This document shows, one piece after another, positions 27,262-63,514 of a DNA stretch of 64,000 nt. Every line of letters starts with the position of its first letter. Position 1 is the first letter of the stretch. Source of the DNA: Ferruginibacter sp. GTDB lineage: Bacteria > Bacteroidota > Bacteroidia > Chitinophagales > Chitinophagaceae. The stretch is taken from NCBI GenBank assembly GCA_047601875.1, contig JASGIL010000001.1, positions 3,645,294-3,709,293 of the forward strand, in the 5' to 3' direction. Below the pieces are notes generated by a model. That model worked only from the letters and a program-made list of their open reading frames with translations. It was not told the DNA's origin and made no database searches. A program made the translations under genes and the position numbers.

Positions 27262-28164
27262 ATGCCCCTAACTCCACAACAACATATACAAAGCTTTCTC
27301 GATTACCTGAAGTACCAGAAGCGATACTCCCGGCATACCATTATATCGTATGAAACCGACCTCGTTGCTTTTTTTGATTACCTGCAGTTGCAGTACCAGG
27401 AAAATTCGGTAGAAAATATAAAGCCTGCTTTCGTCAGGAGCTGGCTGGCAGAAGCAAAGGCAAATGGCATTAGTTCCAAAACCATCAACAGGAAGATATC
27501 GTCTTTAAGGTCCTTTTTTAAGCAGCAGCTAAAACAAGGAACGATAACTGTAAGTCCCATGGCGACCATCATTGCTCCAAAGATCAATAAAAGACTGCCG
27601 CAGTTTGTAGAAGAAAAGGATATAGACACTTTATTTGATCATGTTGAATTCCCGGATGACTGGAATGGCAATACCGAAAGAATGCTGATAAACCTGTTAT
27701 ATAATACGGGCATGCGAAAGGCTGAGCTTATCAGCTTAAAAGAAAACCAGGTGGATGTATCGAACAGTACCATAAAAGTATTGGGAAAGGGGAGTAAAGA
27801 ACGCATCATACCGGTTAGTAAAAAACTAATAGAGGTCCTTCAACAATACATGGTGCTAAAACATAATACACTCGTTGAGCCAGATAAAATACATTTATTG
27901 GTAAACGACCATGGGAAGAAACTGGATCCTAAATATGTATATAATGTAGTTAGAAAATACCTCAGCCTTGTAACTACTATTGATAAAAAGAGCCCACATA
28001 TATTAAGGCACACGTTCGCTACTCACTTAATGAATAATGGTGCTGATCTGAATGCAGTAAAGGAACTACTTGGTCACAGCAGCCTTGCTGCAACGCAGGT
28101 ATATACACACAATACGATCGAAAAATTAAAAGACGTATATAAAAAAGCTCATCCCAAAGCTTAG
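27262..28164 (+). CDS. tyrosine recombinase, XerC/XerD family
   Basis: N-terminal SAM-like domain. The catalytic region has GMRKAEL, HILRHTFATHL, LGHSSLAATQVYTH. Confidence 0.85.
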   Translation: MPLTPQQHIQSFLDYLKYQKRYSRHTIISYETDLVAFFDYLQLQYQENSVENIKPAFVRSWLAEAKANGISSKTINRKISSLRSFFKQQLKQGTITVSPMATIIAPKINKRLPQFVEEKDIDTLFDHVEFPDDWNGNTERMLINLLYNTGMRKAELISLKENQVDVSNSTIKVLGKGSKERIIPVSKKLIEVLQQYMVLKHNTLVEPDKIHLLVNDHGKKLDPKYVYNVVRKYLSLVTTIDKKSPHILRHTFATHLMNNGADLNAVKELLGHSSLAATQVYTHNTIEKLKDVYKKAHPKA

Positions 28165-29360: not shown

Positions 29361-29427
29361 GCCGTGGTAGCTCAGGGGTAGAGCATCCCGATGATATCGG
29401 GAGGGTCGTGAGTTCGATTCTCTGGCT
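29361..29427 (+). pseudogene. degenerate tRNA-Thr-like copy with a replaced anticodon arm (would read GAT) and a 5-nt deletion in the T-stem/acceptor
   Basis: The first 25 nt and the T-arm 5' half are identical to the downstream tRNA-Thr(GGT). The 3' end reads TTCGATTCTC-TGGCT instead of TTCGATTCTCACCTATGGCT, so the T-stem and acceptor stem cannot pair. Confidence 0.6.
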
Positions 29428-29438
29428 ACAACTAATAA

Positions 29439-29510
29439 GCCGTGGTAGCTCAGGGGTAGAGCACTTCCTTGGTAGGGAAGGGGTCGTGAGTTCGATTCTC
29501 ACCTATGGCT
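29439..29510 (+). tRNA. tRNA-Thr (anticodon GGT)
   Basis: Acceptor GCCGTGG/CTATGGC with 2 G-U pairs, anticodon arm CTTCC-TTGGTAG-GGAAG. Confidence 0.85.
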
Positions 29511-29587
29511 CTCGAAAAAATACTGTCGATGGTTTACAGACATTAAATTGAAGACCAATTTTCAAAACAAACAATAAAATATAAACA

Positions 29588-31061: not shown

Positions 31062-31256
31062 ATGAACAAATTCAGTGTTTTTGTAAAAGAGTCTTACAAA
31101 GAAATGATGGAGAAAGTGAGTTGGCCTAAATGGGAACAACTTCAACAATCTACCATGATCGTATTGGGTGCTACTTTATTCATCACGGCAATTGTGGCCC
31201 TGATGGACCTGATCGCTAATGGATCTATGAAATTTATTTACTCTTTATTTAAGTAA
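31062..31256 (+). CDS. secE: preprotein translocase subunit SecE
   Basis: 64 aa with a single C-terminal TM helix, sited between tRNA-Trp and nusG. Confidence 0.85.
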   Translation: MNKFSVFVKESYKEMMEKVSWPKWEQLQQSTMIVLGATLFITAIVALMDLIANGSMKFIYSLFK

Positions 31257-31258
31257 TT

Positions 31259-31879
31259 ATGGAAGCAACAACACCTCTGGATAACCTCACTGAGGGCAAA
31301 CCTGCAGATAAAGCGGAGAAGGAAAGCAAATGGTATGTGCTTAGGGTAGTAAGTGGTAAAGAGCGTAAAGTAAAAGAATACCTTGATAAGGATATTGTGC
31401 GTAATGGATGGGACAAGGTTATTAAGCAGATATTCCTGCCTGTAGAAAAAGTATACAAGGTTCTTAATGGAAAAAAAGTAATGCGTGAAAGGAACTTCTA
31501 TCCTGGTTATATCATGATCGAAGTTGCAGGTGATAAATTAAATGATGATATCATCCAGCACGTAAGCAATATCAGCAACGTTATGCACTTCTTAACGGAC
31601 GGTAAAGGTTCTAAAGGAAATATCATTTCTTTAAGAAAAGCTGAGGTTAATAAGATGCTTGGTAAGGTGGATGAGATGAGTGATATCGGCGGTGTAACGA
31701 TGAGTGAGCCATTTATTATTGGCGAAACGATCAAGATCATCGACGGACCATTCAATGATTTCAATGGTGTGATTGAAGAAGTGAGTGATGAAAAGAAAAA
31801 ATTAAAAGTCCAGGTAAAAATATTCGGAAGGGCTACCCCGGTAGAATTAAGTTATATGCAGGTGGAAAAACTTGCGTAA
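31259..31879 (+). CDS. nusG: transcription termination/antitermination factor NusG
   Basis: NGN domain has KWYVLRVVSGKERKV. KOW domain has GETIKIIDGPFNDFNGVIEEV. Confidence 0.95.
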   Translation: MEATTPLDNLTEGKPADKAEKESKWYVLRVVSGKERKVKEYLDKDIVRNGWDKVIKQIFLPVEKVYKVLNGKKVMRERNFYPGYIMIEVAGDKLNDDIIQHVSNISNVMHFLTDGKGSKGNIISLRKAEVNKMLGKVDEMSDIGGVTMSEPFIIGETIKIIDGPFNDFNGVIEEVSDEKKKLKVQVKIFGRATPVELSYMQVEKLA

Positions 31880-31975
31880 TCAATCAAAGTTATCAAACCA
31901 ACTGTTTCAAACCGCTCCATTTTTTAGGGCGGTTTTTTTTGTCTTTAACATCGGGAATGTTTAGCCTTAAATCTG
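31736..31975 (+). repeat. direct-repeat copy 1: intact nusG 3' end (KOW region) plus terminator
   Basis: Aligns by eye, at roughly 70-75% identity, with 36757-36985. That alignment covers atcatcga..ttcaatgatttcaatg..ttatatgcag and the terminator tttagggc(g/t)ggtttttt. Confidence 0.8.
31909..31940 (+). terminator. Rho-independent terminator after nusG
   Basis: aaaccgctcc-atttttta-gggcggtt followed by an 8-T run. Confidence 0.7.
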
Positions 31976-32279
31976 TAGTTGCCTGTTTTACCCATAAGTT
32001 TTGAGTAATTTTTTATATCAATTGATATAAAATTGGAGGTGGTAAAAGATAAAATGCTATTTTGATAAATTTTTGTAGTAACATATTGCCTGAAATTCGT
32101 TGATGAAAAAAGTCACCATAGATATAGAAGCATAAGCTAACTCACTATAGTCTCGTTTGAAAACTACAAAAAAAATAAATTTTTTCTTATGTCTCAAGTC
32201 GCGTTAAGTATCATAAGTGTAATTGGCTTGAAATGAAGTTTTATGATGAATAGTAGTATAAAATTTATCTTTTAAAAAA

Positions 32280-33044
32280 ATGAGTATGGAGTTTATAAAA
32301 GAGTGGGGAATGATAGCAGGTATCGCCGGGATGGCCATTGGTGTGTTCCTTATTTTGTTTCGGGAACTTATTGGTAAAATAATTTTTTCAACGCTAACTA
32401 AAAAACAGTCTTACGTAATTATCATACTCTTTATGGTATTAGTTTGGTCCTTTTCAATATTTTGTATAGTACAATATTATTATGGTAAGGATAAAGCTTC
32501 ACAGCAGGTAACAGTATTGGTTCATGGAGAAAATGGTAAAGATGATTTAATATTACCAACCCGGGGAAAAGTAAAATTAATTTATGGCGACGCTAATGTA
32601 TTGGAAACAATAAATGATAAAGGAGAAGCAACGTTCAAACAAATTCCCAGTCAATTCTTCAATTCAGATTTAACCGTTGAAATACTTTTTTTTGATCCAG
32701 GTGGCGAACCTTATCGTGCTGTAAAGCCAGATTCGCTTTATCATCTTAAAAAAGCCAGTTACATAGATTTAACTGTAAAACTTTACGGATTAGACATGTT
32801 AAAAGGAATTGTAACTGACTTTAAAACAGGCGACCCGATTCCGAACGTTCGTATTAGTATTCTTGGTATAGATACAATGTCCAATAATTATGGAGAATTT
32901 ACATTGTTGATCCCCCGTGAACATCAACGCAAATTCCAAACAGTTAGAGCTTTCAAAGAAGGATATGAACTATTTGAGCTTAACAATATTCCGGTACAAA
33001 CCCAAAGCGAATTCCCAATTGTAATGAAACCTAAACAGGATTAA
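32280..33044 (+). CDS. membrane-anchored protein: 2 N-terminal TM helices plus beta-sandwich (carboxypeptidase-regulatory-like) domain(s)
   Basis: TM segments are GMIAGIAGMAIGVFLILF and YVIIILFMVLVWSFSIFCIV. The C-terminal LKGIVTDFKTGDPIPNVRISILG...YGEFTLLIP is a CarboxypepD_reg-like signature. Confidence 0.5.
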   Translation: MSMEFIKEWGMIAGIAGMAIGVFLILFRELIGKIIFSTLTKKQSYVIIILFMVLVWSFSIFCIVQYYYGKDKASQQVTVLVHGENGKDDLILPTRGKVKLIYGDANVLETINDKGEATFKQIPSQFFNSDLTVEILFFDPGGEPYRAVKPDSLYHLKKASYIDLTVKLYGLDMLKGIVTDFKTGDPIPNVRISILGIDTMSNNYGEFTLLIPREHQRKFQTVRAFKEGYELFELNNIPVQTQSEFPIVMKPKQD

Positions 33045-33045
33045 A

Positions 33046-35112
33046 GTGAGGTATTATTTTGTAATATTAGGTTTAATCATTTTTAATTTTTATGCTCATT
33101 CTCAACAAGTGAAATTGTATGGGCAAATTTGTCTCCATAACAGTAAACTTAGTAAGGATAAACTTAAGTATGTAAATGGTTCATTTATTACTGCTCCTTA
33201 TTCGAAACCCTTTAAAGTTGTGGACAGTGGCAAATTTGAACTTGAGTTTGTAAACATTGCTTTGGGTACACCGATAAAAATTAACGTAGAGACCAATGGT
33301 TATGAAGTTGTGAATGATGATGATCTACGAAAAGTTATTATTGGAAGGAAGCTGCCATTGAATGTGTATTTGACTACCAAAGGGCAACTGGCATTTGCTC
33401 AAACCGAATTTTATAATATTAGTTTAAAAGCAATCTATGCAGAGAGAGACGCAAAAATCACAAAATTATCTGCAAGCGTGGCTGAAAGTAAAATTATTAT
33501 CGCTGAATTGGAGAAGAAGTTCGGACGAAAAATTGCAGATCGTTTTGAGGCTGAAAAATTATTAAATGCAAAAGTTGAAGAACTAAAAAAACGATTGCCG
33601 GAATTTGCACAGAGCATGGCTTATCAGAACCTGGACTTTGCTTCCGATATGTATGTAAAAGCGTATGAATATTTTGAAAAAGGAAACATTGAAAAAGCCA
33701 TTGAAGAATTAGATGAATCACAACTGGAAAAATCTTATCAAAATGCAAAGGAAAGTTTCATTGAAGGGGAGAGATTAGATAATTTAGGTAAAGATATAAA
33801 GGAGAAAAGCCTTTTGCAGATAGATCAGGTAATCAAAAGTCTAGAACTTAAGGCAGCATCATTTAGTTGGACTTTTAATTTTATCGGCTCAGCAACGATT
33901 TATGAAAAAATAATTGAAAAATACAGTTCTCATAATCCTGCCAGTGAAAAATTGGCTAATTATTATTTAAAAGCAGCTAAAGCCTTTTATGATGGTGGAC
34001 AGTTTGAAAAGGCTCTGAAACTTCTTCAAACAAATATTAAAATTCATGAAGAAATTCCTGAGATAGGCCACGCTGCCATAGCAAAATCCTATTCCCTGAT
34101 CGGCATTATTTATAGTATTTTAGGGCAATATGAAAAATCTTTAAAATACCAGGATACTGCGCTCAATAGTTTAAGAGAAATTTCCAATAGTAAGAGTTTG
34201 GATTTAGCACTTGTTTATTGCAATATTGGTGGTGCTTATTATTCTTTACATGAGTATGATAAAGCATTAAATTATCAAAAAAAAGATCTTAGTATACTGC
34301 AAGAACTTTTAGATAGTAATAATACAGATTTGGCTGGCTCTTATGGTAATATCGCAAACACTTACCTTGCTATGGGAAACTATGAACTGGCAATGAAATA
34401 TCAACAAAACTGTACTGAAATTTTTACCCAGGTTTTAGATTCCACACATCCTGATTTGCTTGGCTCTTACATAAATTTAGGTAATATATATAACGTTACT
34501 GGTGAGAAAGAAAAAGCACTCGCCATTTATCAGAAAGTCATCGAAAAAATAGAGCAAAGTTCAGGTCCTAAGAAACCGGACCTGGCCTTCGCTTATACAA
34601 ATGCAGGAGACATTTACTATTTATCTGGTCAATTTGAAAAGGCAATTGAGTGTTATAAACAAGGAATAAAATTTAAAGAGGTGCTTTTGCCTGGTCACTA
34701 TACTTTGGCCCATACGAATTATTCCCTGGGCCGGTGTTACTTATATTTAAAAGAGTACTCGCAGGCTATAGAGTACTTGCAGATATCAGTCAAAATTTCT
34801 CCCGTCCTAAAAGATTCTTTTTATTATAATGATATTGGTATTGCCTTTGCCAAAAGCGGGCAATTCGATAAAGCTAAATCAGCCTTTACTGAATTTGAGG
34901 ACCTTTCTAACGATAAAAGCAAGGTTTTTAAAGATTGGTGCATATACTATGCTTTGAGGGATGAGAAAAATAAAGCTCTTACAAATCTTAAAATGGCAAT
35001 AGATTTAGGATACGATGATTTAAATGTACCAACAGATGAAAGTATCGAAAATATTTTAGGAGATTCTTTGTACACCCAATTAATGAATGACTTTAAAAAT
35101 AGTACAAATTAA
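33046..35112 (+). CDS. secreted protein: signal peptide, beta-sandwich domain, long coiled coil, about 9 TPR (TPR_12-like) repeats
   Basis: GTG start lies 1 nt after the upstream stop. The signal is ILGLIIFNFYAHSQQ. Repeats follow an A..Y.N.G..Y...G.Y..A..Y pattern from about aa 300 to 680. No P-loop was seen. Confidence 0.55.
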   Translation: MRYYFVILGLIIFNFYAHSQQVKLYGQICLHNSKLSKDKLKYVNGSFITAPYSKPFKVVDSGKFELEFVNIALGTPIKINVETNGYEVVNDDDLRKVIIGRKLPLNVYLTTKGQLAFAQTEFYNISLKAIYAERDAKITKLSASVAESKIIIAELEKKFGRKIADRFEAEKLLNAKVEELKKRLPEFAQSMAYQNLDFASDMYVKAYEYFEKGNIEKAIEELDESQLEKSYQNAKESFIEGERLDNLGKDIKEKSLLQIDQVIKSLELKAASFSWTFNFIGSATIYEKIIEKYSSHNPASEKLANYYLKAAKAFYDGGQFEKALKLLQTNIKIHEEIPEIGHAAIAKSYSLIGIIYSILGQYEKSLKYQDTALNSLREISNSKSLDLALVYCNIGGAYYSLHEYDKALNYQKKDLSILQELLDSNNTDLAGSYGNIANTYLAMGNYELAMKYQQNCTEIFTQVLDSTHPDLLGSYINLGNIYNVTGEKEKALAIYQKVIEKIEQSSGPKKPDLAFAYTNAGDIYYLSGQFEKAIECYKQGIKFKEVLLPGHYTLAHTNYSLGRCYLYLKEYSQAIEYLQISVKISPVLKDSFYYNDIGIAFAKSGQFDKAKSAFTEFEDLSNDKSKVFKDWCIYYALRDEKNKALTNLKMAIDLGYDDLNVPTDESIENILGDSLYTQLMNDFKNSTN

Positions 35113-35376
35113 ATTCCTGCTAGCTTAATTGTAGGAACTCTCAAGCGGATAAATGCCCGGAACTATTATTGTAACTTTTTAAGTTTGCCAGTCTTGATGA
35201 TGTTAAGCTGTTTGGACCAATGTTAGTTTTGTTATCTAAATGTACCGGGTACGCTTACCTGTATAAGTCTATAATTATTTTTCAAACCATATCCGCCACC
35301 TGCCAATCGTTCCTTATATGCCGACCTTTATTTATATTTAGATATGCATTCATTTTTCCAAAGCTAAAACTGTAAT

Positions 35377-36732
35377 ATGAACCGCCGAAGTTTTATCAAG
35401 CATTCAACAATACTTACCGGTGGACTTGTGCTTTCAAACAGCCTTGCTGCATCCTTTCATATTTCTAAAAAGACAAGTGTAATTATTATCGGTGCCGGGT
35501 TTGCAGGTTTGGCGGCTGCCTATGCATTGAGTAAAAAGAAAATTCCTTTTGTCATCCTGGAAGCCCGGAACCGAATTGGCGGCAGGGTATTTTCATTTGA
35601 AGCGGACCCGGCAGAAAAATTAGTGATTGAACTGGGGGCCGAATGGGTGGGCAAATCGCATGAAAGGCTGATGGACCTTTGTAAGGAATTCAACCTTGAA
35701 TTACAGAACAATCAATTCGATACGCATCTTTTGTACAAGGGAAAATACAGCCCGCAAGGGCAATGGGATTATTCCGAACCCTGGAAAAAGAAATGGGATA
35801 GCATGCTAAAAACCTATAGACATTTGACCGAAGTTGATAAGAGAAAACTGGATAAATACGATTGGTGGCGATACCTTGTAAATAATGGTTGTGAAGCTTC
35901 AGATCTCGAAATAAAGGAGCTACTCGACAGCACCGATTTTGGTGAGAGTATTCGCCATGTTTCTGCCTTTGCAGCTTTGGCCGAATACGCCGAGAGCAGC
36001 AAAAAGAACGAAATGGATTATAAGATAAAGGGAGGCAATGGTAAACTTGCGGAAGCATTGGCAGATAAAGTTGGAAGGGAATTTATCAAAACCGGTTATA
36101 AAGTAGTTACGATCAATCAAACCGATAAAGTAAAAGTTGTTTGCGCCAATGGCGAAACATTTACTGCGGATAAACTGATTTGCACAGCCCCCACTTTTGC
36201 TGCGAAGAAAATAAACTGGCAGCCTGCTTTACCTGCAAATGTGATGCAGGCAATGAATGAATTGCAATATGCCCGGATCAACAAGCACCCTGTATTGTTC
36301 AATCAACGTTTTTGGAAAGATGAGTCTTTTGACATGATCACTGATACCCCGGCGCATTATATTTATCATGCTACCAAAAACCAACCCTCACAAAAAGGAG
36401 TGTTGATCTCTTATACAATTGGTGATAAAGCGGCAATGATCAGTAATCAATCGGAGGAATGGAATGGCCGTAATGTACTGGAAGCATTATCGCCGGGCTT
36501 CGGGGACGTAAAATCGTTGGTGGAAAAACAATTCAATTACTATTGGGGGCAAGATGAATTTTCAATGGGGGCATATGCTTTATATGGTGTCGGGCAATGG
36601 TTTGATGTAAGACCCATTTTACGTAAATCATTTTTACATACCCATTTTGCCGGTGAACATTTGGCCGATTGGCAGGGCTTTATGCAAGGGGCGATTGATA
36701 CCGGGGAAGAGGCGGCGGGTAAAATAAGTTAA
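35377..36732 (+). CDS. Tat-exported flavin-containing amine oxidase family protein
   Basis: Twin-arginine signal MNRRSFIKHSTILTGG...LAAS. FAD fingerprint IIIGAGFAGLAAAYAL...ILEARNRIGGRV. C-terminal FAGEH motif. Confidence 0.75.
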   Translation: MNRRSFIKHSTILTGGLVLSNSLAASFHISKKTSVIIIGAGFAGLAAAYALSKKKIPFVILEARNRIGGRVFSFEADPAEKLVIELGAEWVGKSHERLMDLCKEFNLELQNNQFDTHLLYKGKYSPQGQWDYSEPWKKKWDSMLKTYRHLTEVDKRKLDKYDWWRYLVNNGCEASDLEIKELLDSTDFGESIRHVSAFAALAEYAESSKKNEMDYKIKGGNGKLAEALADKVGREFIKTGYKVVTINQTDKVKVVCANGETFTADKLICTAPTFAAKKINWQPALPANVMQAMNELQYARINKHPVLFNQRFWKDESFDMITDTPAHYIYHATKNQPSQKGVLISYTIGDKAAMISNQSEEWNGRNVLEALSPGFGDVKSLVEKQFNYYWGQDEFSMGAYALYGVGQWFDVRPILRKSFLHTHFAGEHLADWQGFMQGAIDTGEEAAGKIS

Positions 36733-36756
36733 TGGAGCATTTGTAATAACATTAGA

Positions 36757-36985
36757 ATCATCGATAAATCGTTCAATGATTTCAATGCTGTAATCCATGT
36801 AAGAGAAAAAAAGAAAATTAAAGGTAAAGGTATCTGGCAGGGCTAATTCGGAAGAATTAATTATATGCAGCTGAAAGCTTAGTAATGTATAAATTAACTG
36901 TTAGGAGGGTGTCTCATGTTTAGGGCTGGTTTTTTGTGCTTTAATATTTCGGATTTGTATATGTTACCTTAATACCATATAAAAA
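36757..36985 (+). pseudogene. direct-repeat copy 2: decayed fragment of the nusG KOW-domain coding region plus a decayed terminator
   Basis: Translates as IIDKSFNDFNAVIHVREKKKIKGKG... versus NusG IIDGPFNDFNGVIEEVSDEKKKLKVQVK. It is followed by tttagggctggttttttgtgc, which matches the nusG terminator. Confidence 0.75.
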
Positions 36986-37027
36986 GGGAAATTATCTCAC
37001 TTGGATTGCCACCACGATACTCATATT

Positions 37028-38041
37028 TTAAGACCCGTATTTTTCATAATCTGTTAATGTGTTAGGAGGCAAAAATAGCGGCCCTTTAAAATAACAATTT
37101 CCGCCTTTTTTCTTTGCTCGAAAACATCCATGTATAGCTCTTACGATCCATTGATTCATTTGTTCGATCTGTGATTTACCATAAGAATCAAATAGAAGCT
37201 CTGCATATCCAAAACTAGCTGTTACATACAATTTTGGTGATATTATTTCCCAGTCAAATCTCATTATGCTCTCTCGAATATGTTCTATTAATCTAACAGT
37301 CATATCCTCACCGTAAAATGTTGGGCAAATTATAAATTCGTCACTATTAATATTTTTTCGCAAAGAGTCTGGAGCAGCGCTTGCGACAATCTTATTTATT
37401 TCTAACAAAATTTTATTGCCAATTTCTTTACTATATATTCGATTAATAGCGTTAAAATTATCAATATCAAAGTAAATTAAAAAAGTAATTCGTTTTTCAG
37501 AGAAATGCCTAAACATCAATTTTAATATAGTATTTGTAAAAGCTGACTTATCTACTGTTTTTACTAATTTTTTTTCAACGCCTTCCGGATCATCTAAATA
37601 ATCAAATGGTTTAAATTTTACTGATAAAGCTCCAAATTGCGATAAGCTTTTATGTAATCTTTGGACTAATGTGGAATCTAATTCATTTTTAACGTGAATT
37701 CCAAATATCCTTCGAAGACCATAAGGCACATCTTTTTGGTTTAAAGTATCTCCAACAAATAATGGAATAACTTTATGTTTAGTAGGGTTCTGCCTGTTTA
37801 ATGCAATCGCAGTACTTATTTCCTCCTTTTCGTAAAAAGAAGTTTCTGTATTTTCAGTGCTAAGAATAATTGAAATATATGATTGAGCTTGTGCTTCTGG
37901 TATTTTTACATCCCATAAATCCCCCGGCAGTAGCGATTCTGAATCTAAAAAAACCTCAAACTGTAAGTCCAAAAGATTAAACAATTGTTTGGCTAAAAGA
38001 GTATCTATTGCGGAATGTGCGATAAAAAAATGATATTTCAT
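37028..38041 (-). CDS. TIR domain fused to a divergent GGDEF-type (palm) nucleotide-cyclase-like domain (signature NSDEF)
   Basis: N-terminal HFFIAHSAIDTLLAKQL...VFLDSESLLPGDLWDVKIPEAQAQSYISIILS...SFYEKEEIS fits the TIR pattern. C-terminal FLIYFDIDNFNAINRIYSKEIGN..., NINSDEFIICP, TASFGYAE and RAKKKGGNCY align by eye to the GGDEF motifs of PleD-type cyclases. Start placed at the ATG at 38041 (MKYHFF); the ORF-track start is 38101. Confidence 0.65.
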   Translation of the reverse strand: MKYHFFIAHSAIDTLLAKQLFNLLDLQFEVFLDSESLLPGDLWDVKIPEAQAQSYISIILSTENTETSFYEKEEISTAIALNRQNPTKHKVIPLFVGDTLNQKDVPYGLRRIFGIHVKNELDSTLVQRLHKSLSQFGALSVKFKPFDYLDDPEGVEKKLVKTVDKSAFTNTILKLMFRHFSEKRITFLIYFDIDNFNAINRIYSKEIGNKILLEINKIVASAAPDSLRKNINSDEFIICPTFYGEDMTVRLIEHIRESIMRFDWEIISPKLYVTASFGYAELLFDSYGKSQIEQMNQWIVRAIHGCFRAKKKGGNCYFKGPLFLPPNTLTDYEKYGS

Positions 38042-38569
38042 ACAAAATGCGATTTTGTAATTATGTCTTTTACAAAGATTTGCGAAATCCCTAAAATACA
38101 ATTTAAATTTCTGTAATGTTCAAAAATTAAATGATTAGGGGGATATCTTAACTAAGATGCAAACTTTTCCAAATCGAGGAAAATGTGACTACCTTAACTA
38201 GAGCCAGTGTTCAGGAGTATCGCAGGTGTCATTTAAATCTGATAGTCTGCAACTGGTTTAAGATATAATATTTCTCCTACCAAACTAAATTTTCATTAGT
38301 TGTAATATATTTTCAAAGAAGTTTCAATAGATATCTTAGTATTAAAATGTACGCTAAATCAAATTGAATCATTATGCCAAATAAAGAATTGCAGATATTG
38401 GTAGTTGAACAAAAATACTGGTTGCACATTTTTTCAAAAATGTTTTTTATGCAATAACGAGGCTTGATAACCAACAAACTGCGTTTTTCAAAAGTCTTTC
38501 GTGCAGATTTGTAGTCGACACACAAACTTAGGAATGAAAAAAATCCCCCATTTCCTCTCTCCATTCCAA

Positions 38570-38577
38570 CAAATTCC
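38570..38577 (+). promoter_or_regulatory. candidate -7 box (TActTTTG) for the rplKAJL operon
   Basis: TAnnTTTG match about 115 nt upstream of rplK. Confidence 0.3.
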
Positions 38578-38691
38578 CTTACTTTTGCCGCCCCAATTAG
38601 TTCTTTATTGAATTTGTCCCACTAAAACGGACAGGTTTGGGAGTCAGACCGTAAGATGCGGAAAGACGTTAACACCAAAAACATTTTATAA

Positions 38692-39135
38692 ATGGCAAAA
38701 GAAGTAACCGGCTTTGTCAAGCTCCAGTGTAAAGGAGGACAAGCCAACCCGGCGCCGCCAATCGGACCAGCCCTTGGTTCCAAAGGCGTGAACATCATGG
38801 AGTTCTGCAAACAATTCAATGCAAGAACACAGGATAAACCCGGAAAAGTATTACCAGTGTTGATCACTGTGTATGCAGACAAGTCTTTCGACTTCATTAT
38901 CAAAACCCCTCCAGCTGCAGTTCAGTTAATGGACGCTGCCAAGATCCAGAGCGGTAGTAAAGAACCCAATCGTGTAAAAGTTGGTAAAGTTACCTGGGCG
39001 CAGGTTGAAGAGATCGCCAAGGATAAAATGTCTGACTTAAATGCTTTCACGATGAAAAGTGCAATGAGCATGGTTGCCGGTACAGCCCGCAGCATGGGTT
39101 TAACTGTTGAAGGAAAAGCCCCATGGGATAATTAA
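38692..39135 (+). CDS. rplK: 50S ribosomal protein L11
   Basis: [35 protein letters not shown]. Confidence 0.97.
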
Positions 39136-57779: not shown

Positions 57780-58391
57780 ATGAAGCATTTATCCTTAGTA
57801 TTGAATTTTGTGTTGATCATCGCGGTAGGCATCTTATTTTTCCTCCATTTTTCCAATAAAAAACCAGTTGATAAAAAAGCTCCGGCATTTGTGCCAACAG
57901 CCGGCGGAACGAATATGACCCGTCCAGCCATCGCTTATGTTGAACTTGATTCATTGAATGAAAAAATAAGCTATATAAAGAACAGGAGAAAGGAATTGGA
58001 AAAAGAACAAAATGCGATCGAATCCGAATGGGAAACCGGTTACAGGGGACTGGAAGAACAAAAGAATAATTTTTTAAAGAAGGGTAATGCCATTACACAG
58101 GAAGAAGCCCAGCAGTTTCAAAATCATTTATTGGGGCAACAGCAGCAAATAGACGAGAAGAAGCAGGCGCTTAATCAAAAGCTGAATGAAAAAAGTTACA
58201 AGTTTATGGATGACATTCAAACGAAATTGAAAGACTTTTTGGCTGAATACAACAAAGAAAAAAATTACATGTACATTTTTACTACAGGCACCGGGCTTGA
58301 TTATATGGTGTATAAAGACTCGTCTATGAATATCACTGATGATGTGATAGAGGGTATGAATAAAAAAATGAAGGCGTTGGGCGAACAATAA
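57780..58391 (+). CDS. OmpH/Skp-family periplasmic chaperone
   Basis: N-terminal TM/signal, a Gln/Lys/Glu-rich coiled coil, and a family-typical size of 203 aa. Confidence 0.7.
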   Translation: MKHLSLVLNFVLIIAVGILFFLHFSNKKPVDKKAPAFVPTAGGTNMTRPAIAYVELDSLNEKISYIKNRRKELEKEQNAIESEWETGYRGLEEQKNNFLKKGNAITQEEAQQFQNHLLGQQQQIDEKKQALNQKLNEKSYKFMDDIQTKLKDFLAEYNKEKNYMYIFTTGTGLDYMVYKDSSMNITDDVIEGMNKKMKALGEQ

Positions 58392-58414
58392 TGTAGATAG
58401 ATTTATTTAACTTG

Positions 58415-58445
58415 AATCCCGTTACCAAACGGGATTTTTTATTTT
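58415..58445 (+). terminator. Rho-independent terminator
   Basis: aatcccgtt-accaa-acgggatt followed by a T-run. Confidence 0.7.
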
Positions 58446-58480
58446 TACATTTACACATCCAATAAATTTAAAACTGCAGC

Positions 58481-59899
58481 ATGACTGAAACAACTCCTTC
58501 CTTTAAGCCAACACTTGGTTTATTCGACGCAACAATGATCGTTGCAGGTTCTATGATCGGTTCAGGAATATTCATCGTTAGTGCAGACATAACACGCAAT
58601 GTAGGCAGTGCAGGCTGGCTCATAGCGATATGGCTCATTACAGGATTTATGACGCTTACCGCGGCAGTAAGCTATGGAGAATTAAGTTCCATGTTTCCAA
58701 AAGCAGGAGGCCAGTATGTTTATTTAAAAGAAGCATTTAACCCGCTCGCCGGTTTTTTATATGGTTGGAGTTTTTTTGCCGTTATACAAACAGCTACCAT
58801 TGCAGCAGTTGGTGTAGCCTTCTCAAAATTTGCAGGATATTTTATACCGGCACTGGAAGTTACAGATAGCAATATTATTTTCCAGCTTGGAAGTTTTAAG
58901 GTTTATCCTGCACAACTCGTATCGATCGTGCTGATCATCTTTCTCACTTATATTAATACAAAAGGTGTAAAAGGTGGTAAAACAATACAAACAACTTTCA
59001 CAGTTGTAAAATTAGTATCACTGTTCGGGTTGATCATTTTTGGTTTTTTGATGGCATCAAAGCCTGGCGTGTGGAGCGCAAACTGGGCCGATGCATGGAG
59101 TATGAAAGGTTTGAGTGCAGACGGAACGATGACCGGTGTTGCAGGAAGTGCCATACTGGGAGCAATAGCCGCTTCTATGGTGGGCTCAATATTCAGCAGT
59201 GATGCATGGAACAACGTAACATTCATTGCAGGAGAAGTGAAAAATCCAAAAAGAAATATCGGGCTGGCTTTATTTTTTGGAACATTGATCGTTACACTTA
59301 TTTATGTAACAGCAAACCTGATGTACATAAATGTGTTGCCTTTACATGATATTGCTTATGCACCACAGGACCGTGTAGCCGTAGCAGCAAGCAATGCGAT
59401 TTTTGGAAACATCGGTACCTATGTTATTGCTGTGATGATCATGATCTCCACTTTTGGTTGTAACAATGGATTGATACTTGCCGGGGCAAGGGTTTATTAT
59501 ACAATGGCAAAAGATGGTTTATTCTTTAAGAAAACAGGACAGCTGAATGATCATGGCGTACCGGAATTTGCATTGTGGATACAATGTGTTGTTGCCGGTG
59601 CATTGTGCCTGAGTGGTAAATACGGCGATCTCCTGGATATGATATCATTTGTTGTGGTGCTATTCTATGCACTAACAATATTGGGCATATTCATTCTCAG
59701 AAAAAAACAACCCAATGCAGAACGCCCATACAAAGCTTTTGGTTACCCGATTTTACCGGCGATCTATATACTGATGGCCATTGCATTTTGTGTATTGCTC
59801 ATCAAATTCAAACCAACATTTACATGGCCGGGTCTTATCATTGTATTGATAGGAATTCCTATTTATTATCTTGCAGTTGCAAATAAAAACAAAGCCTGA
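58481..59899 (+). CDS. APC-superfamily amino acid permease
   Basis: 12 TM helices, with GLFDATMIVAGSMIGSGIF. Confidence 0.85.
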   Translation: MTETTPSFKPTLGLFDATMIVAGSMIGSGIFIVSADITRNVGSAGWLIAIWLITGFMTLTAAVSYGELSSMFPKAGGQYVYLKEAFNPLAGFLYGWSFFAVIQTATIAAVGVAFSKFAGYFIPALEVTDSNIIFQLGSFKVYPAQLVSIVLIIFLTYINTKGVKGGKTIQTTFTVVKLVSLFGLIIFGFLMASKPGVWSANWADAWSMKGLSADGTMTGVAGSAILGAIAASMVGSIFSSDAWNNVTFIAGEVKNPKRNIGLALFFGTLIVTLIYVTANLMYINVLPLHDIAYAPQDRVAVAASNAIFGNIGTYVIAVMIMISTFGCNNGLILAGARVYYTMAKDGLFFKKTGQLNDHGVPEFALWIQCVVAGALCLSGKYGDLLDMISFVVVLFYALTILGIFILRKKQPNAERPYKAFGYPILPAIYILMAIAFCVLLIKFKPTFTWPGLIIVLIGIPIYYLAVANKNKA

Positions 59900-59904
59900 T
59901 CAAT

Positions 59905-60900
59905 ATGAGTGCTACTGATTTTAATAAACTGTTTCAATCATTCACACAAATTAAAGTGGGTGTGATCGGTGATATGATGCTGGATACTTATTGGTGGGGC
60001 AGGGTAGATCGCATTTCACCTGAAGCACCTGTGCCCGTTGTTGCGGTAAGCAAAAAAGAACAACGTATTGGCGGTGCAGGCAATGTTGCATTGAATATAC
60101 AATCACTTGGTGCAACAGTTCATGCGATCAGTGTGTTGGGCGATGATGCAGATGGGGAGCAGCTTACAGATTTATTAAAAAGCAATAATATCAATACTGG
60201 TTACCTGCTTAAAAGCGGTGGTCGTATTACCACGAACAAGATTCGCATCATAAGTCGCAACCAGCACATGATGCGGCTTGATGCAGAGATTACCAAAGAA
60301 CTTGCAACAACAGAAGAAGAAAAACTGGTAGCATGTTTTGAAGAATATATAAAGAAAGAAAAACCACAGATCGTAATACTGGAAGATTATAACAAAGGTG
60401 TACTTACACCTGCGGTAATAGAAAAGGTAATTTCTCTTTGTAAGGCCAATAATATTTTGACAGCAGTAGATCCAAAGCGAAAGAATTTTTTTGCTTATCG
60501 CTTTGCAGATATTTTTAAACCAAATCTTCATGAGGCGAAGGAAGGGTTGAATATCATCAGTGATGAAGTAACAGGTGAACTGCTTTCCAATATTCACGCA
60601 GCACTGTTTGAAAAATTAAATCATCATATCTCTTTTATAACACTTTCTGAAAAAGGTGTTTTTTATCAAACCAATAATGAGAAGGCAATCATACCAACAC
60701 ATATCCGCAGCATTGCAGATGTGAGTGGTGCAGGCGATACCGTTATTGCAGTAGCATCGGTAGTGTATGCAGCAACAAAAGATATTAAGCTAATGGCCGA
60801 AATGGCAAATATTGCCGGTGGATTGGTTTGCGAAGAAGTAGGTACAGTTGCTATCGATAAGAATAAATTTCTGCTGGAATGCCAGCAACTTCTAAAATAA
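59905..60900 (+). CDS. PfkB-family sugar kinase, RfaE domain-I-like (D-glycero-beta-D-manno-heptose-7-phosphate kinase)
   Basis: VIGDMMLDTYWWGRVDRISPEAPVPVV, GGAGNVA and the C-terminal DVSGAGDTV. Confidence 0.7.
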   Translation: MSATDFNKLFQSFTQIKVGVIGDMMLDTYWWGRVDRISPEAPVPVVAVSKKEQRIGGAGNVALNIQSLGATVHAISVLGDDADGEQLTDLLKSNNINTGYLLKSGGRITTNKIRIISRNQHMMRLDAEITKELATTEEEKLVACFEEYIKKEKPQIVILEDYNKGVLTPAVIEKVISLCKANNILTAVDPKRKNFFAYRFADIFKPNLHEAKEGLNIISDEVTGELLSNIHAALFEKLNHHISFITLSEKGVFYQTNNEKAIIPTHIRSIADVSGAGDTVIAVASVVYAATKDIKLMAEMANIAGGLVCEEVGTVAIDKNKFLLECQQLLK

Positions 60901-60905
60901 AAAGT

Positions 60906-61640
60906 ATGAGACTTGTTCTTGTTCTTTTGATGTCTTCCCTTTTATTATTTTCCTGCAATCAAAATAAGGAAATTGATTTTCATAAAACTTCATGGAAACC
61001 CATTGATACAGCTGGTTATTATGAATATATAACTACTAAGATTACCGAAGATCCGGCTGTAAATAAGAAAGTAGTTTTAAAATTAGTTGGTTGGTTAAAT
61101 AATGATAGTAATAAGATAGATTCTTCTTCAATTCATGATCCTGATGCACTTGCATCCTTTTTTAAACCGGAGTTAAGCAATTATGATTTTGCAAGATCAC
61201 TAGGGGCGAATTCTACTGGTTATATTAAAATGGATTTCAAAAAATACCTGTTTGTCAGTTTCAAGAATGCAATTCATTTTACCGTTTATTTTTCAAAAGA
61301 TCACAGTTTTGAAGAGCTCCAAAAAGATTCTGCTAGACTTTCTGCAATGAAAATATTCAAAGAAATAGATATTATGTCTTCTGAAAAGGCAGCAAAGAAA
61401 TGGGAGGAGGAAAATGATACTACATGGAGAAAATTTATAACAGATAATCCATTGCCTGTATCATTGGAGTTGAAGCTAAATGATCCTTTTCTTCAGAAAA
61501 ATAAGTTTGATTCTGTAGAGCATTTATTGGAAAATGAATTACCTGGTAAAACTCAAATAATGACAGGTGGGATAAAGAGGATATTGGACAATGAGTTTTA
61601 TAAAAACGCTACACTTATTTTTAAGTTTACCATTTTCTGA
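60906..61640 (+). CDS. hypothetical lipoprotein
   Basis: Lipobox LLLFSCNQ. No recognisable domain. Start set at the ATG at 60906. Confidence 0.45.
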   Translation: MRLVLVLLMSSLLLFSCNQNKEIDFHKTSWKPIDTAGYYEYITTKITEDPAVNKKVVLKLVGWLNNDSNKIDSSSIHDPDALASFFKPELSNYDFARSLGANSTGYIKMDFKKYLFVSFKNAIHFTVYFSKDHSFEELQKDSARLSAMKIFKEIDIMSSEKAAKKWEEENDTTWRKFITDNPLPVSLELKLNDPFLQKNKFDSVEHLLENELPGKTQIMTGGIKRILDNEFYKNATLIFKFTIF

Positions 61641-61779
61641 TAAATAGCCTTTCTTATCCCATTAGCAAATATTAAACAAACCACATTGTTCTTTAATGAC
61701 CATTTAAGCTTTCTTCTAAAAGATTCGATGGTATTTGGGCATTAATTAAATATTTTTGTGCCATAAACCAACAAGGAAT

Positions 61780-62730
61780 ATGCGACCATTTTCAATTGTA
61801 ATACACGGCGGTGCCGGAACGATCCTGAAATCAGATATGACTCCTGAACTGGAGGAAGCTTATATTCTTGCATTGGAAGATGCATTGAATGCCGGCTATG
61901 CAGTACTGGAGCAGGACGGTACTTCAGCAAATGCAGTGAAAGCTGCTATCGTAGTGCTGGAGGATAATCTATTGTTTAATGCGGGCCGTGGTTCTGTTTT
62001 TACAAAGAAGGGGCTACAGGAAATGGATGCTGCTATCATGGACGGGCAAACGCTGGAAGCAGGTGCAGTTGCTGCAGTGCGTAACGTTAGAAACCCGATA
62101 GAACTTGCCACCGAAGTGATGACAAACAGCAACCATGTTTTTTTAAGTGGCAAAGGCGCCAATGATTTTGCCATCAAGCAAGGAATAAAATTAGAACCCG
62201 ACGAATATTTTTTCTCACAGTTCCGCTATGATCAATGGAAGGAAATGCGTGACAGTGATAATTATTCTTTGGACCATACCCACCAGGGACTGGAAGAATT
62301 GATGAAGGATAAAAAATTCGGAACCGTTGGAGCAGTGGCGTGCGATATTTTTGGAAACATTGCAGCGGCTACGAGTACCGGTGGTATGACCAATAAAAAA
62401 TATGGCCGCATTGGAGATAGTCCCATCATTGGAGCAGGAACCTATGCGAATAATAAAACCTGTGCAATCAGTTGTACCGGTCACGGTGAGCCGTTTATAA
62501 GAGCGGTTGCAGCACATACTGTAAGTTGCCTGATGGAATATAAAGGGTTGAATTTGCAGGAAGCAATGGATGAAGTAGTGCATGGTAAACTTGTAGAAAT
62601 GGAAGGAGAAGGCGGTATGATCGGGGTAGATGCGCAGGGGAATACAGCCATGGCGTTTAATAGTGCGGGGATGTACAGGGCGATGAAGAATAGTGATGGG
62701 GAGATCGTAATCGGAATTTATAAGGACTAA
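61780..62730 (+). CDS. isoaspartyl peptidase / L-asparaginase (Ntn hydrolase)
   Basis: IVIHGGAG, the autoprocessing site KFGTVGAVA, and GAGTYA. Start set at the ATG at 61780. Confidence 0.85.
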   Translation: MRPFSIVIHGGAGTILKSDMTPELEEAYILALEDALNAGYAVLEQDGTSANAVKAAIVVLEDNLLFNAGRGSVFTKKGLQEMDAAIMDGQTLEAGAVAAVRNVRNPIELATEVMTNSNHVFLSGKGANDFAIKQGIKLEPDEYFFSQFRYDQWKEMRDSDNYSLDHTHQGLEELMKDKKFGTVGAVACDIFGNIAAATSTGGMTNKKYGRIGDSPIIGAGTYANNKTCAISCTGHGEPFIRAVAAHTVSCLMEYKGLNLQEAMDEVVHGKLVEMEGEGGMIGVDAQGNTAMAFNSAGMYRAMKNSDGEIVIGIYKD

Positions 62731-62771
62731 ATAAGTATTCAACGTACAATATCTATTTTTTAAGCATAGTA

Positions 62772-62824
62772 GTTTGGTGTTTGTAGTTTGGTGTTAATAG
62801 AACACCAAACTACAAACACCAAAC
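62772..62824. repeat. perfect 24-bp-stem hairpin (GTTTGGTGTTTGTAG words), 5-nt loop
   Basis: gtttggtgtttgtagtttggtgtt-aatag-aacaccaaactacaaacaccaaac. Confidence 0.85.
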
Positions 62825-62839
62825 GTTTTATTTGAGCAC

Positions 62840-63514
62840 ATGAAAAAATTTGCAATAATTGTAGCCGGTGGTAGTGGCAGCAGGATGAATAGCTCTTTAC
62901 CGAAACAATTTCTTCTCTTAAAAGGAAAACCTGTACTATATTATACGATCAGCGCTTTTTTAAATGCTTACGACGACTGCAAAATAATATTGGTATTACC
63001 TGAGGATCATGTTGCAGCTGGCCAGGAGATCATTGATGCTTTTTTTGATTATAGCAGGATACAGATCGCTATCGGCGGTCGCACACGTTTTCATTCTGTT
63101 CAAAATGGTTTGCAACTGGTAGATGAAGACAGTGTTGTTTTTGTTCATGATGCTGTTCGCTGTTTATTGACAAAAGAACTTATTCATCGCTGTTATGATG
63201 CAGTGATTGAGTTTGGTTCTGCAGTTCCTGTAATTGCATCCAAAGACAGTTTAAGGATCGTTACCGAAGATGGTAATGAACCGATCGATCGTGATCTTGT
63301 TAAACTCGTACAAACTCCACAGGCTTTTTACAGCAAGATATTACTCCCCGCATTTAATATAGATTATAAAGATAAGTTTACAGATGAAGCTACCGTTGTA
63401 GAAGCATTTGGACTTAAAATTTATTTGGTGGAAGGGGAAGACAACAACATTAAAATTACAAGACCGGTTGACCTGGTTATAGCAGAAAAATTATTAGATG
63501 CAGTTGTTAAATAA
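62840..63514 (+). CDS. ispD: 2-C-methyl-D-erythritol 4-phosphate cytidylyltransferase
   Basis: AIIVAGGSGSRM...LPKQFL, VHDAVRC and KITRPVDL. Confidence 0.9.
   Translation: MKKFAIIVAGGSGSRMNSSLPKQFLLLKGKPVLYYTISAFLNAYDDCKIILVLPEDHVAAGQEIIDAFFDYSRIQIAIGGRTRFHSVQNGLQLVDEDSVVFVHDAVRCLLTKELIHRCYDAVIEFGSAVPVIASKDSLRIVTEDGNEPIDRDLVKLVQTPQAFYSKILLPAFNIDYKDKFTDEATVVEAFGLKIYLVEGEDNNIKITRPVDLVIAEKLLDAVVK

Follow-up and report, generated by a model that had tools for sequence, protein, structure and literature searches.

The Ferruginibacter sp. DNA analyzed here (the window, that is, the whole stretch of 64,000 nucleotides) carries, between nusG and rplK, a second, non-functional copy of the nusG 3′ end and terminator at positions 36757 to 36947. 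We interpret this copy, with moderate confidence, as the scar of a 3′-end displacement, in which a homologous crossover in a conserved flank would have been combined with an illegitimate join. Accessory genes, some of them of defense type, are thereby found wedged between two of the most conserved operons without a dedicated mobility gene, and the event has left a datable scar.

The nusG 3′ end and terminator are duplicated

The window has the standard Bacteroidota arrangement of a XerC-like gene, hpf, a tRNA cluster, tuf, tRNA-Trp, secE, nusG, rplK, rplA, rplJ, and rplL. The intact nusG gene (31259 to 31879, plus strand), which is preceded by secE (31062 to 31256), encodes a protein of 206 aa with Pfam NusG (5e-20) and KOW matches. 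This protein has 94% amino acid identity to the NusG of L001, an uncultured Ferruginibacter and the best relative in the GTDB representatives and JGI metagenomes that were scanned; neither collection contained a relative closer than 93 to 94% NusG identity. The gene is full length and is followed by a predicted terminator that looks functional, so that the putative target has been kept intact. The distance from nusG to rplK (38692 to 39135, plus strand, from the ORF list) is 6.8 kb.

The XerC/XerD-like tyrosine recombinase gene (27262 to 28164, plus strand) lies upstream of hpf and the tRNA-tuf cluster, ~4 kb upstream of nusG and outside of the repeats described below. Because it is syntenic in 34 of the 36 relatives with enough flanking sequence, it is part of the conserved backbone and not of an island. 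Within the tRNA cluster, ARAGORN calls a tRNA-Ile(GAU) at 29361 to 29433 (plus strand; Rfam score of 30.7 bits at a threshold of 29), which adjoins tRNA-Thr(GGU) at 29439 to 29511. The called tRNA closely copies tRNA-Thr(GGU), but its anticodon stem-loop differs and its acceptor end is disturbed on the 3′ side. In four relatives the cluster reads Thr-Tyr-Gly-Thr and nothing more, which marks the extra tRNA as a tandem duplicate private to this lineage; it is a pseudo-tRNA or else a remolded tRNA.

A first-pass annotation of the window, made by eye, had described a duplicated nusG 3′ end and terminator with a decaying second copy and had proposed a formal pairwise alignment of the two. When the region 31650 to 32050 was searched against 36680 to 37060, local alignment paired 31736 to 31951 with 36757 to 36947 at a score of 86, about 26 standard deviations above shuffled controls (n = 300; mean 20.8, standard deviation 2.5, maximum 34), and the duplication is thus confirmed. 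An independent repeat search returned the same pair at offsets of 5021, 5016, and 5009, and blastn, run as a control, gave an E value of 1.5e-13. The identity, estimated earlier at 70 to 75%, amounts to 79% over ungapped columns (150/189) and to ~69% when gap columns are counted. The left end of the second copy stands as first placed, at 36757, whereas the right end had been drawn ~40 nt too far, at 36985, since the similarity stops at 36947. Extension of the repeat beyond ~36751 upstream or 36947 downstream was not significant, the observed scores being reached by 13/500 and 128/500 shuffles, respectively.

The first copy (31736 to 31951, plus strand) comprises the last 48 codons of nusG, the stop codon, the 3′ UTR, and the intrinsic terminator. 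The second (36757 to 36947, plus strand) is a truncated pseudo-copy of nusG codons ~160 to 206, the stop codon, and a decayed terminator. It differs from the first by several indels and translates as IIDKSFNDFNAVIHVREKKKIKGKG before a stop (the same frame has also been given as IIDKSFNDFNAVIHVREKKKIKGKGIWQG before the stop). It is frameshifted, because GRANSEELIICS, the counterpart of GRATPVELSYMQ in the intact protein, sits in a second frame. The translation quoted in the first-pass annotation and both of its terminator-like strings could be reproduced. The longest identical run between the copies is 16 nt and falls within the KOW-motif codons, where a 38-nt stretch is identical also between the window nusG and L001.

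The terminator hairpins were folded directly, a consensus terminator scan having missed the bulged nusG terminator. In the first copy, the hairpin at ~31909 to 31935, with a T-run extending to 31941, folds at −12 kcal/mol (z score of −2.5). The second copy has lost the 5′ arm of the hairpin and folds at −4.1 kcal/mol (z score of +1.6); the 3′ half of the hairpin and the T-run persist just downstream of the amine-oxidase gene described below. Rfam detected only tRNAs in the whole window and nothing at the second copy. The segment from 36757 to 36947 is a non-functional fragment, a piece of nusG pseudogene, and we suggest that it be annotated as such rather than as an att site.

The nusG-rplK boundary is hypervariable in Chitinophagaceae

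A nusG-anchored scan of GTDB representative genomes (80 Chitinophagaceae loci) and of JGI metagenome contigs (80 loci) provided 160 related loci for comparison. rplK was found downstream of nusG in 93 of these and was not found within 9 kb or more in 20 further loci. The first-pass annotation had proposed an insertion between nusG and rplK and recommended a search of related genomes for the empty site. This search supports the insertion: 27 of the 93 loci have a gap of less than 300 bp (~100 to 260 bp) and represent empty sites. The gap measures 300 to 1000 bp in 30 loci, 1 to 5 kb in 32, and more than 5 kb in 4. In these 93 loci the range is ~100 bp to over 8.8 kb, and across Chitinophagaceae gaps of more than 10 kb occur.

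The gap content is diverse. Clustering of the 229 gap ORFs from the first 80 loci gives 153 clusters of ordinary or accessory genes, and the Pfam families that recur are ordinary ones (response regulators, glycosyltransferases, peptidases, sigma factors, PIN, and TPR); neither an integrase nor a transposase is among these families, a listing of recurrent families that leaves room for a lone integrase. None of the four cargo genes of the window was found in any of the 160 related loci. With conserved syntenic flanks, unrelated content, and empty sites, the nusG-rplK boundary is a hypervariable site with rapid turnover across Chitinophagaceae, and it has the properties of a hotspot flanked by core genes. 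A conserved, secreted-looking ORF of ~155 aa follows nusG in 20 of the related loci and is missing from the window; no trace of this gene, which would have marked the native copy, was found after the second nusG tail.

The DNA homology of the window to its relatives (L001, L002, and L003) ends at ~31941, just past the T-run of the nusG terminator, and returns at 38563 to 38575 with the rplK upstream region. This conserved region (38575 to 38691) forms, together with rplK, the right flank of the hotspot, and its blastn matches to ~50 loci start between 38563 and 38666. Even L001, the closest relative, has nothing in common with the window between ~31941 and ~38563. Since flank homology ends at ~31941 and returns at ~38565, the lineage-specific insert extends from 31942 to 38570, is 6.6 kb long, and includes a gene for a TIR-GGDEF protein. 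The insert of ~4.8 kb bracketed by the repeats, as originally described, is accordingly too short, and the second copy sits not at an edge of the lineage-specific DNA but 1.6 kb inside it. Among the 161 genomes, a displaced nusG fragment was present in that of the window alone: no nusG remnant was detected at the 160 other nusG loci, many with filled gaps, by the same procedure that recovers the window's own repeat.

The insert is an accretion of independent modules

The insert begins with an AT-rich non-coding spacer (31942 to 32279; GC content of 0.27) without homology in the 160 loci and ends with ~470 nt of non-coding DNA (38102 to 38570; GC content of 0.31) that is likewise without homology in the related loci. 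Four genes lie between these edges. Consistent with the earlier observation that the interval lacks an integrase, a transposase, and a tRNA target, searches of the four gap ORFs with Pfam, NCBIfam, and PADLOC recovered no recombinase or transposase, and the tRNA scans found no tRNA between nusG and rplK. The GC content is mosaic, at 0.33 to 0.34 for orf254 and the TPR gene, 0.42 for the amine-oxidase unit, and 0.31 for the TIR-GGDEF gene, relative to a window mean of 0.38. At least three independent modules have thus accumulated in the gap; their homologues occur elsewhere in mobile- or defense-like or in ordinary chromosomal contexts and never adjoin nusG.

The first module consists of orf254 (32280 to 33044, plus strand), whose predicted product has an N-terminal transmembrane head and a CarboxypepD_reg-like C-terminal module (Pfam), and of a gene for a 688-aa TPR protein (33046 to 35112, plus strand; Pfam TPR_12, 2.9e-47; PADLOC TPR, 7.7e-11) that starts immediately after the orf254 stop codon. 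In homologues of orf254, the CarboxypepD_reg-like C-terminal module is fused to interchangeable heads, which are TIR, CHAT, EAD11, or transmembrane. One homologue is followed by a large TPR protein gene beside ParB, Prim-Pol, and DUF4942 genes (L087, 8001 to 12346), and another is followed by a 396-aa ORF (L088). Judging from these arrangements, orf254 and the TPR gene form a two-gene cassette resembling a conflict or defense system, to which PADLOC assigned no system.

The amine-oxidase transcription unit (35326 to 36757, plus strand) contains a flavin amine-oxidase coding sequence at 35377 to 36732 (Pfam Amino_oxidase, 3e-59). There are 2930 homologues, the best of them 88% identical and the best 120 at 65 to 88% identity, and the gene is a widespread, conserved chromosomal gene of Chitinophagaceae that is here away from its usual contexts. 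In L081 to L083 it occupies at least three different ordinary chromosomal neighborhoods, none of them next to nusG, and in L081, the closest homologue, the DNA similarity to the window covers only 35326 to 36727. In Ferruginibacter HRS2-29 and one relative, the amine-oxidase gene and the OmpH gene of an OmpH...IspD block are ~3.4 kb apart. This OmpH-AA permease-PfkB-asparaginase-IspD block is present in the window at 57780 to 63514, 21 kb away, without the amine oxidase. These data suggest that the amine oxidase was relocated or reacquired as a single gene.

Beyond the second nusG tail, the TIR-GGDEF gene (37028 to 38101, minus strand) is a 357-aa ORF, annotated at 337 aa in the source MAG, with matches to Pfam TIR_2 (2.7e-10) and GGDEF (3.9e-9). 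Only 12 homologues were found among 5.8 billion proteins, one of them the source MAG's own protein (100%); their contexts include a plasmid-like one with Rep3 and ParA genes (L084) and a defense-island-like one with AbiGi, TIR, IS110, and PLD (L086). The protein may not be a canonical diguanylate cyclase, the GG[DE]EF signature reading NSDEF by eye. Searches for exact matches to the amine oxidase, to the TIR-GGDEF protein, and to its 337-aa version retrieved no contig.

The displaced copy stems from a housekeeping nusG locus

Only with the window's own copy, L001, and L002 does the alignment of the second copy continue through the 3′ UTR and terminator. Because the similarity covers these parts, the second copy comes from a housekeeping nusG locus of the genus-level clade formed by the window, L001, and L002. 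An UpxY-type NusG paralogue was considered as its source and ruled out, since the homology spans the housekeeping 3′ UTR and terminator.

Within this clade, the second copy scores 86 against the window's own nusG and 99 against L001. Three-way site counts assign 21 sites to agreement of the window's own copy with the remnant, 15 to agreement of the remnant with L001, and 57 to agreement of the window's own copy with L001. The remnant is thus a long branch that joins near the split between the window and L001. Its distances to the two are roughly equal, which is what a descent of the two copies from different lineages would predict. The intact nusG was also compared with L001, to which it is 85% identical in its 5′ part and 93.5% identical in its 3′ part. 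A maximum chi-square test found no significant mosaic breakpoint (P = 0.16), and the raised third-position identity of the 3′ part is common to the window, L001, L002, and L003. A degenerate 28-mer specific to the second copy had 0 matches in the metagenome scan.

Probable displacement by recombination and alternative explanations

The second copy begins at a sharp junction at ~36755 to 36758, where the amine-oxidase 3′ UTR meets nusG codon ~160. Past the amine-oxidase stop codon, ~25 nt are weakly similar to L081 and L083, and then the nusG homology begins; comparison by eye with L081 and with the intact nusG of the window gives only ~2 to 4 nt of microhomology there. We infer that recombination produced this arrangement and that one of the two nusG tails is of foreign origin. 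Accessory DNA would have entered by recombination between the secE-nusG transcription unit and that of rplKAJL, duplicating the nusG 3′ end and terminator. A related bacterium in which nusG and rplK are placed alike but enclose different genes would have supplied the linear donor DNA. One homologous crossover would have occurred in a conserved flank, and one illegitimate, microhomology-level join would have created the junction at ~36757.

The exchange could have run in either direction. In one, the donor would have given the nusG 3′ end, its terminator, orf254, the TPR gene, and the amine oxidase, pushing the resident nusG tail, terminator, and TIR-GGDEF gene downstream. In the other, the donor would have given the nusG tail, terminator, TIR-GGDEF gene, and rplK, anchored in rplK. 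One copy alone stayed under selection, and the other has gained substitutions, several indels, and frameshifts and has lost its terminator stem. The gene order in the window (nusG, cargo, nusG tail and terminator, TIR-GGDEF, rplK) is that of an anchor gene, new DNA, and an orphaned 3′ fragment with the old neighbor. Several points speak against this reading: the intact nusG shows no mosaic breakpoint, the microhomology at the junction is short, the collections searched yielded neither a donor nor an intermediate arrangement, and a displaced nusG fragment was seen at the nusG-rplK boundary in just 1 of 161 genomes. Homologous-recombination capture, the third alternative offered in the first-pass annotation, is the one that fits best.

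The first-pass annotation had regarded the repeats as attL/attR-like sites bracketing an insertion, which implies that an element with a tyrosine or serine recombinase entered the nusG 3′ end with a replacement tail and later lost its integrase. The geometry suits such an origin, the gene being intact while a displaced copy of its 3′ end decays ~5 kb downstream, two of the cargo modules are of the accessory type borne by mobile elements, and the duplicated coding length of ~145 nt is comparable to that of the icd case discussed below. We nevertheless consider a decayed integrative element quite unlikely. The ORFs include no recombinase or recombinase remnant. As the amine-oxidase 3′ UTR abuts the second copy, there is no room for an attP arm. 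An att core is not recognizable, the 16-nt identical run lying in KOW-motif codons that are also identical to L001, and no identical core was found at the edges of the insert. The right repeat has variable DNA on both sides, because the TIR-GGDEF gene and the 470 nt that follow are lineage specific as well, and the interval is a compositional and phylogenetic mosaic that includes a conserved chromosomal gene. The filled gaps among the 160 other loci show no nusG remnant and hence no recurrence. Most of the features that define an integrative element are thus missing, although the target gene is intact, and the att reading of the repeats is not upheld. A recombinase would be dispensable if a circle, either an excised chromosomal circle or a plasmid, carrying the nusG 3′ end and terminator with orf254, the TPR gene, and the amine oxidase had integrated by a Campbell-type single crossover within the ~215 bp of homology. 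This would give exactly two direct copies flanking the insert, and homologues of the cargo do occur on plasmid-like or conjugative-element-like DNA. However, it needs an earlier illegitimate circularization that joined the amine-oxidase 3′ UTR to the interior of nusG. The hybrid copies would be expected to be nearly identical on one side, and no such tract remains; moreover, a single-crossover duplication is unstable and normally resolves back. We hold this route to be slightly less probable still.

Foreign DNA might not have been involved at all if the nusG tail was duplicated locally in an illegitimate recombination and the amine oxidase moved from its ancestral site. The proximity of the OmpH...IspD block (57780 to 63514), near which the amine oxidase is found in Ferruginibacter HRS2-29 and which here lies only 21 kb off without it, is in favor of such an intragenomic rearrangement, as is a second private decayed duplication in this lineage, the pseudo-tRNA of tRNA-Thr(GGU) 2.3 kb upstream of nusG that is missing in four relatives. 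Against it, orf254-TPR and TIR-GGDEF are low-GC accessory genes of patchy distribution with no counterpart in the gaps of the relatives, and the closest amine-oxidase homologue (L081) is in a third context. The second nusG tail, in addition, resembles the window's own copy no more than it resembles L001, by alignment scores as by site counts, which would be unexpected unless the duplication is very old. We therefore view a purely intragenomic origin as unlikely. It is extremely improbable that the second copy is a chance similarity, an assembly artifact, or a conserved element with a function, for instance a regulatory RNA or the terminator of the amine-oxidase gene. Survival of the T-run and the 3′ half of the hairpin just downstream of that gene would be compatible with a function, but the hairpin is destroyed, Rfam is silent at the second copy, and neither the other loci nor the metagenome scan contained the copy. 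The distance of the alignment score from the shuffled controls speaks against chance, and a 79%-identical copy with indels is unlike the product of a repeat misassembly.

A bolder idea, which we regard as highly improbable, is that the nusG terminator and 3′ end are the preferred entry of a recombinase-independent or trans-mobilized process of cassette insertion in Chitinophagaceae that stacks conflict and defense cassettes in the nusG-rplK gap. Each new cassette would come in on the nusG side and push the older ones toward rplK, much as in an integron-like array that lacks an integrase, and the decayed tail would be the sole surviving footprint of the process.

Comparison with known systems

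The repeats resemble the arrangement left by e14 and phage 21 in E. coli icd. These elements supply a replacement of the last ~50 codons of a gene in an essential pathway, and the native tail remains at the far end as icdC, a diverged pseudogene; an integrase is encoded next to att, which has a defined core. The window shares with them an intact gene and a displaced, diverged 3′ tail at the far end. It differs in having neither a recombinase nor an att core (the 16-mer lies in KOW codons), in its mosaic cargo, and in the internal position of the right repeat.

Genomic- and defense-island hotspots offer a second comparison. As in these, the flanks are fixed core sequences (the nusG terminator and the rplK leader), the content is highly variable among relatives, and cassettes of defense type are present in the window, namely, TIR-GGDEF and the head-swapping CarboxypepD_reg protein with its TPR partner. 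Unlike at such hotspots, the gap cargo of the other genomes is mostly metabolic or regulatory in appearance, and no hotspot integrase or tRNA was seen. The hypervariability of the nusG-rplK boundary should help comparative annotation and the search for new conflict systems.

The best parallel to the preferred explanation, 3′-end displacement, is found in Rhs, CDI, and T6SS effector-immunity arrays, whose orphaned 3′ regions have been attributed to homology-facilitated illegitimate recombination with a conserved upstream anchor (PMC5361080). In Rhs arrays, CDI orphan CT arrays, and Vibrio T6SS arrays, as in the window, a conserved upstream gene serves as the anchor, a new 3′ end is installed together with downstream genes, and the old 3′ fragment and its neighbor are orphaned distally without a recombinase. 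The anchor in the window is, however, a housekeeping transcription factor gene and not a polymorphic toxin gene, nusG 3′ ends are not functionally diversified, and a single orphan, decaying rather than retained, was seen in one genome of the 161. The second nusG tail does not represent a new kind of element but an ordinary scar, one more example of a type of event already known. Of greater interest, as by-products, are the hotspot and the two cassettes in it that resemble conflict systems.
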